NCBI GenBank assembly: GCA_015659035.1
Contig: DQNS01000112.1
Span: 598 to 64,597 of the forward strand
Source of the DNA: Acidobacteriota bacterium
Lineage (GTDB): Bacteria > Acidobacteriota > Vicinamibacteria > Vicinamibacterales > UBA8438
Length of the DNA: 64,000 nt
Reading direction: 5' to 3'
Below, one piece after another: positions 30,118 to 30,168 of this stretch (position 1 is its first letter; each line of letters opens with the position of its first letter). The notes beneath the pieces are model-generated. The model ran no database searches. It saw only the letters and a program-made list of their open reading frames with translations, and was not told the DNA's origin. A program made the position numbers and the translations under genes.

Positions 30118-30168
30118 GCGAAGCCTTCGATTCTCTCCTGTCTCCTGTCTCCTGTCTCCTGTCTCCTG
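30118..30168 (+). repeat. CTCCTGY heptad-family repeat, copy 3: 5' module plus five perfect tandem TCTCCTG units (30134..30168)
   Basis: GCGAAGCCTTCGATTC followed by (TCTCCTG)x5, read directly. It lies in the fdhD/fdnG divergent intergenic region. Confidence 0.95.

Follow-up and report, generated by a model that had tools for sequence, protein, structure and literature searches.

A stretch of 64,000 nucleotides (nt) from contig DQNS01000112.1 of an Acidobacteriota bacterium, called the window in this work, contains a formate dehydrogenase locus in which the genes fdhD and fdnG are transcribed divergently. The spacer between them carries five perfect tandem copies of the heptamer TCTCCTG, and this tract is the subject of the present analysis. 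The host is a probable marine Acidobacteriota. Gene calls in the window were made in this analysis and are based on the G+C content of third codon positions. The features of the locus are as follows.

29172..30008, minus strand: fdhD, formate dehydrogenase accessory sulfurtransferase (Pfam FdhD-NarQ at 29175-30008, E 6.6e-60; homologues of 278 aa)
30016..30021, minus strand: TAGAAT, conserved, candidate -10 element of a putative leaderless fdhD transcript, 7 nt before the fdhD ATG
30134..30169, plus strand: perfect heptamer array (TCTCCTG)x5.1, found by Tandem Repeats Finder (TRF) and in the sequence, unchanged in eight other assemblies
30174..30179, plus strand: TAATGT after TGC (TGnTAATGT), candidate extended -10 element of fdnG judged from its sequence, 10 nt before the ATG
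30190..33180, plus strand: fdnG, catalytic subunit of formate dehydrogenase; TGA in frame at 30766-30768 (Pfam domains and SECIS_3)
33180-34043, plus strand: fdnH, downstream of fdnG
34233-34847, plus strand: fdnI, downstream of fdnH

TRF reports the tract at 30134-30169 with period 7, 5.1 copies of the unit TCTCCTG, 100% matches, no indels and a score of 72, and the raw sequence agrees with this call of a perfect array. The five mismatch-free copies described in a first-pass annotation of this DNA are thus present as described, and its assignments of fdhD (minus strand, start 30008) and fdnG (ATG 30190), with the 181-nt spacer between them (30009-30189), hold as well, given the Pfam matches and the SECIS_3 match. 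The tract ends 21 nt 5' of the fdnG ATG. On the fdnG sense strand it is pyrimidine-rich, and arrays read in this orientation are referred to as CTG-type, while their reverse complements are CAG-type. With a per-base match probability of about 0.28 from base composition, 28 consecutive periodic matches are expected by chance about 3e-16 times per position and about 2e-11 times per window; a perfect run of 35 nt must therefore have been made by a duplication process.

The domains of fdnG lie on both sides of its in-frame stop codon, with TAT_signal and Molybdop_Fe4S4 in 30190-30765 and with Molybdopterin and Molydop_binding past the TGA at 30766-30768. A SECIS_3 match (30763-30821; 62.8 bits against a gathering score of 63; E 4e-14) starts at this TGA, and fdnG is therefore of the selenocysteine type and the formate dehydrogenase a selenoprotein. 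Gene callers split fdnG into pieces of 192 aa and about 790 aa in all relatives. Two open reading frames (ORFs) cross the tract, 29172-30209 on the minus strand and 29990-30181 on the plus strand, and a coding function of the tract was considered and rejected. FdhD homologues are about 278 aa long, with a start equivalent to 30008, and the 68-nt spacer found in relatives is too short to contain the 63-aa plus-strand ORF.

The first-pass annotation treated the tract as a local feature, which it is not, as its repeat family extends across the genome and the clade. At least seven arrays of TCTCCTG or a related unit (NCTCCTG or CAGGAGN) are found in the window, the tract included, and the two-unit pattern CTCCTGNCTCCTG, with at most one mismatch allowed, occurs 17 times against 0.49 expected from shuffled sequences. 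Six arrays besides the tract are listed below.

17964..17976, plus strand: two-unit relative CTCCTGTCTCCTT; on the minus strand CAG-type, 10 nt past the stop codon of the minus-strand gene 17987-20503 (pattern scan and ORFs)
21231..21243, plus strand: two-unit relative CTCCTGCCTCCTT, where the minus-strand gene 21222-22856 has its 3' end (pattern scan and ORFs)
34050..34076, plus strand: (AGGAGAC)x3.9, the reverse complement of the unit of the tract, CAG-type, 6 nt after the fdnH stop codon (TRF)
34192..34225, plus strand: (CCTCCTG)x4.9, followed after 7 nt by the fdnI ATG (34233), no Shine-Dalgarno sequence intervening (TRF)
56925..56944, plus strand: (TCTCCTG)x2.9, in the gap separating convergent genes; CAG-type on the minus strand, 10 nt past the stop codon of the gene on that strand (TRF)
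62206..62231, plus strand: (AGGAGTC)x3.7, 12 nt past the stop codon of an ABC-transporter auxiliary gene; the ATG of a DUF4340 gene follows after 16 nt (TRF)

Repeats of this period are also prominent in the relatives, which were collected as 20-kb loci around FdhD homologues of 99, 96, 94-95, 87-89, 80 and 68% identity and are cited below by their L numbers. Many close homologues of FdhD exist in metagenome assemblies, and the named ones (76-80% identity) belong to metagenome-assembled genomes (MAGs) of Acidobacteriota. In the window and the relatives, 31 of the 59 tandem arrays that reach 2.8 copies or more have period 7, a count in which near-identical loci are partly redundant, and so do 22 of 36 arrays, built from many different units, in ten loci of other Acidobacteriota classes picked by a pattern scan. 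Almost every unit fits NNNYCTG or its complement CAGRNNN (TCTCCTG, CCTCCTG, ACTCCTG, TTCTGAC, AAGCCTG, TAGCCTG). All CTG- and CAG-type arrays of the window and the relatives lie in spacers or overlap with only the last codons of a gene. Among the few period-7 arrays that lack the CTG/CAG core is (TGGGATC)x2.7 in L002 (4469-4487), which resembles the GGGAATC repeat of Xanthomonas.

A genome collection with one genome per species was scanned for three units of NCTCCTG, and at least 118 DNA stretches matched, which are to be taken as a sample of the taxonomic spread and not as a census. Among the matches listed, to which the following counts also refer, more than half are from Cyanobacteria, and the rest come mainly from Acidobacteriota, Verrucomicrobiota, Planctomycetota and Bacteroidota. 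When 106 (CAGGAGN)n arrays are read in the CAG-type orientation, the stop codon of a long ORF stands at most 60 nt upstream in 39, in contrast to 10 for the opposite reading, and 25 of these 39 stop codons are within 20 nt of the array. The bias is 10:0 in Cyanobacteria and 29:10 in other phyla. Near a downstream start codon there is no bias of orientation, with 12 CAG-type and 11 CTG-type arrays.

At the site upstream of fdnG, a CTG-type array is present 19-25 nt before the ATG in the window, L001/L134, L002-L006, L007-L010 and L129-L130. The fdnG strand of the window, L001 and L134 reads ...cgat(TCTCCTG)5-tgtgctaatgtaggcatcgatATG. The spacer of L002-L006 (FdhD 94-96% identical) is 68 nt long and contains TTCTGAC, GCTTGAC or TCCTGAC units, followed by tattcttagggcg...ATG, while L007-L010 and L129-L130 (FdhD 87-89%) carry (CTTCTGA)x3.9 or a decayed form of it before the tattcttagggcg linker. 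In these last two groups a toxin-antitoxin pair lies between fdnG and fdhD; the array is kept beside fdnG despite the intervening pair and therefore travels with fdnG. The units differ between lineages (TCTCCTG versus TTCTGAC, TCCTGAC or TTCTGCG), as do the copy numbers, so the array persists across lineages while its unit and copy number turn over. No array is found in L131 (FdhD 80%), which has gcgCTGTCTCCgccgcgTCCTtgtgctactgta where the window has (TCTCCTG)5-tgtgctaatgta. The linker tgtgctaMtgta is common to both, and the L131 sequence looks like an unexpanded seed of the array. The fdnH-fdnI spacer likewise bears arrays in relatives (L002-L010, L129), with differing length and unit.

The 125-nt part of the fdhD-fdnG spacer outside the repeat is single-copy, with no further copy in the window or in loci outside the species. 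A mobile element, such as a miniature inverted-repeat transposable element, was rejected as the identity of the spacer, given this lack of other copies and the fact that no terminal inverted repeats were seen. The toxin-antitoxin insertions differ between two lineages, as L007 (9238-9887) has a PIN-domain gene with a small partner and L129 (9141-9816) has MazE and PIN genes, and the pairs are oppositely oriented, which marks the divergent spacer as a hot spot for insertion. Several short symmetries were also noted in the species-unique part of the spacer. The sequence CGGCATATC near fdhD (30030-30038) is fully complementary to GATATGCCG (30187-30195), which spans the fdnG start codon; this codon lies within a local palindrome, GGCAT-CGAT-ATGCC (30181-30194), and a 6-1-6 palindrome, TTCAACCGTTGAA, is located at 30096-30108.

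The rate at which such arrays change can be estimated from closely related loci. L002 and L005 are 99.91% identical over 20.8 kb, and their sole indel is one CAGGAGT unit, in an array of 5 copies in L002 (2226-2260) and 6 in L005 (2219-2260). Array length does not change in the other near-identical pairs (L003/L004, L007-L010, L129/L130). This gives about one unit change per about 20 array comparisons at 0.1-0.7% divergence, which is similar to the rate of point substitution in a 30-bp stretch and is not the rate of a contingency locus. Slippage in the heptamer family is real but slow.

Within the species, the tract does not vary in length. L134, obtained by a flank-gap-flank search of Joint Genome Institute (JGI) metagenomes, has five copies and 23 mismatches in 7 kb, and an exact-protein look-up yielded seven more contigs of the same species, mostly from different samples, with record names that refer to hydrothermal-vent and other marine sites. 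Together, these eight assemblies differ from the window by 82 mismatches over 29.2 kb (1-23 each; 99.4-99.97% identity), and all of them have the five TCTCCTG copies and not a single difference in the 181-nt spacer, where about 4 differences would be expected in eight spacers. The first-pass annotation proposed slipped-strand mispairing and a phase-variable role, to be checked by length polymorphism among relatives. The mispairing itself is borne out for the repeat class by the whole-unit change between L002 and L005. No length polymorphism was found across the assemblies at the level of consensus sequences, and phase variation at the tract is not supported. Its unit number is invariant and it is short, so it lacks the testable features of a phase-variable locus, and the gene beside it encodes a respiratory enzyme and not a surface antigen. 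The tract is a slowly evolving repeat.

The tract lies between two hexamers that resemble -10 elements. On the fdhD side, TAGAAT precedes the start codon by 6-7 nt in the window, L002, L003, L007, L129 and L131, including loci in which the toxin-antitoxin pair replaces the upstream DNA. This conserved distance gives fdhD the geometry of a leaderless transcript and suggests that its mRNA is leaderless. The tract, about 112 nt upstream of the hexamer, would therefore not be part of the fdhD mRNA, and such a layout would leave no place for the string of Shine-Dalgarno cores that the first-pass annotation read in (CAGGAGA)n on that mRNA. Leaderless transcription as a general habit of the genome was rejected, as the peak of TANNNT hexamers at 6-7 nt in the relatives consists largely of orthologues of fdhD and one other gene, and within the window only fdhD has this signature.

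On the fdnG side, a TAnnnT hexamer is located 9-13 nt before the ATG (TAATGT in the window, TACTGT in L131, TATTCT in other lineages), and the tract ends 4 nt before the TGnTAATGT element. In the 68-nt spacers the array occupies 37 nt between the two -10-like hexamers, and arrays of the TTCTGAC type place CTGACT, which agrees with TTGACA at 4/6 positions, 18 nt upstream of TATTCT. This arrangement favours a position embedded in the promoter. An AGG also occurs at Shine-Dalgarno distance in the fdnG linker, between the tract and the ATG, and in most lineages the fdnG ATG is preceded at 7-8 nt by TA[AG][AG]G.

As RNA, the tract is predicted to be unpaired in a 171-nt fold (z 0.09), while in a 331-nt context that includes 150 nt of coding sequence its mean unpaired probability is 0.39, compared with 0.34 +/- 0.08 for random 36-nt stretches of the window. 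A specially unstructured landing pad is not supported, as the ensemble pairing in the longer context is ordinary. No G-rich partner for the tract is present within the spacer. No Rfam covariance model matched the spacer, either at the gathering threshold or with E<=1, and a known RNA family or tRNA was rejected as the identity of the tract, the only notable match nearby being the SECIS inside fdnG. G-quadruplex, i-motif, Z-DNA and A-tract bending were also set aside, since TCTCCTG has no G3/C3 runs, alternating purine-pyrimidine sequence or A-tracts. No intrinsic terminator was found in 29900-30300 or 33900-34400, and no consensus sigma-70 promoter in 33900-34400.

We consider it probable that the tract is a heptanucleotide microsatellite of a dispersed period-7 intergenic family, born by slippage, changing slowly, kept adjacent to fdnG rather than fdhD and not serving as a fast switch. 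Its place in the family, its position, its turnover between lineages and its constancy within the species are observed, and slippage as its origin, its placement in promoter or leader and any effect on fdnG expression are inferred. The array most likely arose in place through replication slippage from a single CTGTCTCC-like seed and would evolve as whole units are gained or lost and as mutated units spread through the array. It may form the -35 and spacer DNA of an fdnG promoter with a short leader, or else the CU-rich 5' part of the fdnG leader. Because a perfect array presents the same sequence beside the -10 element at any copy number, a change of one unit would only move the upstream DNA by 7 bp, and the length fixed at five units across the sampled population argues against a fast on/off switch. 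A cis role for fdnG, through translation or promoter geometry, is possible.

Several observations weigh against this interpretation. The CTG/CAG core shared by almost all units and the strand bias of CAG-type arrays directly past stop codons go beyond what slippage alone would produce, and a role at the RNA level is suggested for some arrays of the family. The invariance of the whole spacer in nine assemblies hints at constraint, for which a merely passive spacer would have no need, though the lineages are non-independent and the numbers small, and assembled consensus sequences are blind to minority length variants in the population. Finally, a scan for consensus sigma-70 promoters returned none in 29900-30300, a result which is uninformative as promoters of Acidobacteriota are uncharacterised.

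The tract belongs to a type of repeat with a long record in other bacteria. The short tandemly repeated repetitive (STRR) heptanucleotides of the cyanobacteria Calothrix, Anabaena and Nostoc, with the units CCCCAGT, TTGGTCA and CAACAGT, are likewise dispersed tandem arrays in non-coding DNA, and (NCTCCTG)n itself is common in cyanobacterial genomes; the units, the host phylum and the G+C content differ from the case described here. A bacterial excess of heptanucleotide repeats, with polymerase slippage proposed as its source, was reported in 2007 (Mrazek et al., as cited in PMC4679880 and PMC4692102). The repeats GGGAATC of Xanthomonas and GGGGAYT of Nostoc are intergenic, are found at corresponding sites of related species while their length and sequence vary, and include some inverted pairs (Rehm et al. 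2015, PMC4692102, which also mentions STRR). The arrays of the window resemble them in the 7-nt unit, in the mostly 2-6 copies, in their intergenic location and unexplained function, and in the retention of the same intergenic sites in relatives while length and sequence vary, and in both cases inverted pairs can form stem-loops. That class has tens to hundreds of arrays per genome, and here there are seven in 64 kb. In contrast to it, the unit here is CU- or AG-rich (NCTCCTG/CAGGAGN), contains a Shine-Dalgarno core or its complement, has no G-quadruplex potential, and occurs in a probable marine acidobacterium. A preprint on Nostoc describes modest effects of such heptamer repeats on promoter regulation (10.1101/2022.06.06.494920). 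The tract has every testable defining feature of dispersed intergenic heptanucleotide repeats.

Other heptamer systems share single traits with the tract. TAACTGA repeats of marine Beggiatoaceae, Cyanobacteria and Bacteroidetes occur in 2-6 copies and in one orientation a few nt before start codons, with a patchy distribution across phyla; in Beggiatoaceae they stand directly before the start codon, often in place of a Shine-Dalgarno sequence, with S1 and cold-shock proteins as proposed partners (MacGregor 2015, PMC4679880). This layout is shared by the array at 34192-34225 before fdnI and by those upstream of several genes in relatives. The tract itself differs in standing 21 nt off the ATG, with a possible weak AGG or a -10-like hexamer in the interval, and the family studied here has a different unit and uses both orientations, with the purine-rich reading favoured past stop codons. 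In Haemophilus influenzae, the AUCUUUC heptamers in the 5' untranslated regions (UTRs) of hmw1A and hmw2A number 11-63 units, shift within few laboratory passages and make up, together with a G-rich segment, a long hairpin that is cut by RNase III (PMC12721329). A pyrimidine-rich 7-nt unit upstream of a gene is shared with that system, and the hmw hairpin formally resembles the pairing of the 34050 and 34192 arrays; the tract differs in its five units, invariant in nine assemblies, in the lack of a G-rich partner in the spacer, and in a gene that encodes no surface adhesin. The TTTTGAT heptads of Vibrio cholerae ctxAB vary in copy number between strains, with a reported relation to promoter activity (bioRxiv 10.1101/2021.05.14.444153). 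They too are tandem heptamers in a promoter region, but they are AT-rich, recruit known transcription factors and belong to one promoter, unlike the present unit, which is a member of a genome-wide family and has no known binding protein.

Among the alternatives to the slippage-born microsatellite, an RNA-level element is possible though on the whole unlikely. According to this view, the tract is transcribed as a CU-rich, G-poor part of the fdnG leader that helps translation start upstream of the weak AGG Shine-Dalgarno sequence, for example by offering ribosomal protein S1 or cold-shock-domain proteins a place to bind, the latter at about one heptamer each. A similar proposal, with one CspB per heptamer, was made earlier for the Beggiatoaceae repeats (PMC4679880). 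The TA[AG][AG]G motif and the unpaired state of the tract in the 171-nt fold are in line with it, and so are the CTG-type arrays that stand 0-17 nt before start codons inside operons, which are necessarily transcribed and have no Shine-Dalgarno sequence between (window fdnI, 7 nt; L002 fdnI, 0 nt; L002 fdnH, 13 nt; L007 fdnH, 17 nt; L129 fdnI, 9 nt; further examples in L023, L075, L086 and L118). The ordinary unpaired probability in the longer context and the near-equal numbers of CTG- and CAG-type arrays near start codons across phyla argue against it, and in relatives with the 68-nt spacer a promoter upstream of the array would find space only within fdhD. A phase-variable or rheostat repeat, in which frequent slippage in 7-bp steps would alter promoter or operator spacing and thereby fdnG or fdhD expression, is very unlikely. 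In its favour, the array is perfect, sits between divergent genes and adjoins a -10-like element, whole-unit changes are known in the family, and hmw1A/hmw2A (PMC12721329) and ctxAB (bioRxiv 10.1101/2021.05.14.444153) provide precedents. However, each of the species' nine assemblies, which come mostly from different samples, has five copies, few beside the 11-63 of hmw; one change in about 20 array comparisons is far below the rates of contingency loci; the -10 element faces the same sequence at any array length; and the repeats also occur past stop codons and between convergent genes, where there is no promoter logic.

Two further explanations concern specific partners of the tract. In E. coli, fdnG is a classic NarL-activated operon, and NarL sites are inverted 7-2-7 pairs or isolated heptamers and are not known as head-to-tail runs. 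An operator for a heptamer-recognising regulator, such as a NarL-like response regulator, could be imagined at this position, and the register GTCTCCT matches 5/7 of the consensus TACYYMT. This was the best match and the proposal was rejected as almost certainly wrong, since the tract is arranged head to tail, its 7-bp period would put successive sites about 240 degrees apart around the helix, TTCTGAC replaces the unit at the same site in relatives, and the units also occur at unrelated genes, past stop codons and in Cyanobacteria. A long-range duplex of (UCUCCUG)5, as the putative 5' end of the fdnGHI mRNA, with (AGGAGAC)n past fdnH (34050-34076), competing with the array at 34192-34225, would link the expression of the first and last fdnGHI cistrons, and we consider it extremely unlikely. 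The units are exactly complementary, and strong hairpins of inverted arrays recur in Acidobacteriota. Nevertheless, 3.9 kb separate the two tracts, a local partner of the CAG-type array lies only 115 nt away, and L002 and L129 have the fdnG array but no CAG-type array past fdnH.

The array at 34050-34076, 6 nt past the fdnH stop codon, pairs with that at 34192-34225, 7 nt before the fdnI ATG, in a predicted fold of 34035-34245 with a minimum free energy of -92.2 kcal/mol and a z score of -4.1. No Shine-Dalgarno sequence precedes fdnI, and the predicted stem could act as a device for coupling or for RNase III. The predicted stem closes the entire 189-nt fdnH-fdnI spacer and encloses the fdnH stop and fdnI start codons. 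At the other end of fdnH, the gene overlaps fdnG in the window (TGATG, 33173-33182), whereas in the 99.7%-identical contig L134 (4229-4284) the C-terminal end of fdnG is different and about 34 nt, containing a small hairpin, separate it from fdnH. Hairpins of inverted heptamer arrays are predicted elsewhere in Acidobacteriota as well, with z scores of -9.9 in L023, -6.2 in L069 and -5.8 in L086, and weaker ones in L003 and L075. Inverted pairs are located at L023 7228-7345, L069 2220-2345, L086 800-920, L077 5980-6228 and L128 2195-2341. Such pairs occur in several Acidobacteriota classes, with units such as CAGGAGT, AGTGACG, GTTCGCA and TCTCAAG, and the pyrimidine-rich arm often abuts an ATG.

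These hairpins allow a more far-reaching reading, which we regard as improbable, namely that the CAGGAGN/NCTCCTG arrays are a ribosome-related RNA system of Acidobacteriota and other phyla and not neutral microsatellites. The purine-rich arm, a series of tandem Shine-Dalgarno cores, would stand directly past stop codons, and the pyrimidine-rich arm, a series of tandem anti-Shine-Dalgarno mimics, would abut the next start codon. The two arms would form hairpins whose pairing register could shift by whole units and which may govern coupling, processing or re-initiation from one cistron to the next. A CU arm that stands alone, as in the fdnG tract, would represent this device at work on a first cistron, and the 7-nt period and the CTG/CAG core would reflect a binding partner instead of polymerase slippage.

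Apart from the heptamer family, two adjacent arrays of period 15 (about 2.9 copies each, 61439-61538) were observed inside the 946-aa ABC-transporter auxiliary (GldG-like) gene 59353-62193; they presumably encode a repeated five-residue motif.

The present result removes the idea of repeat-driven phase variation of formate dehydrogenase in this organism. The TCTCCTG tract adds to a known, unexplained class of repeats, for which we found no earlier report of membership in Acidobacteriota; our literature search on heptamer repeats in Acidobacteria found nothing specific to the phylum. The long-known excess of seven-base repeats in bacteria thereby extends to marine and other Acidobacteriota. The locus itself is of moderate to low weight, and the regularities across the family weigh more. 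Two of them, the CTG/CAG core and the purine-rich reading of arrays past stop codons, could make the old question testable, and the purine-rich array past a stop codon often pairs with a pyrimidine-rich array set against the next start codon. If these regularities are functional, they would point to a hitherto undescribed organisation of translation from cistron to cistron, in genomes with few classical ribosome-binding sites at those genes.

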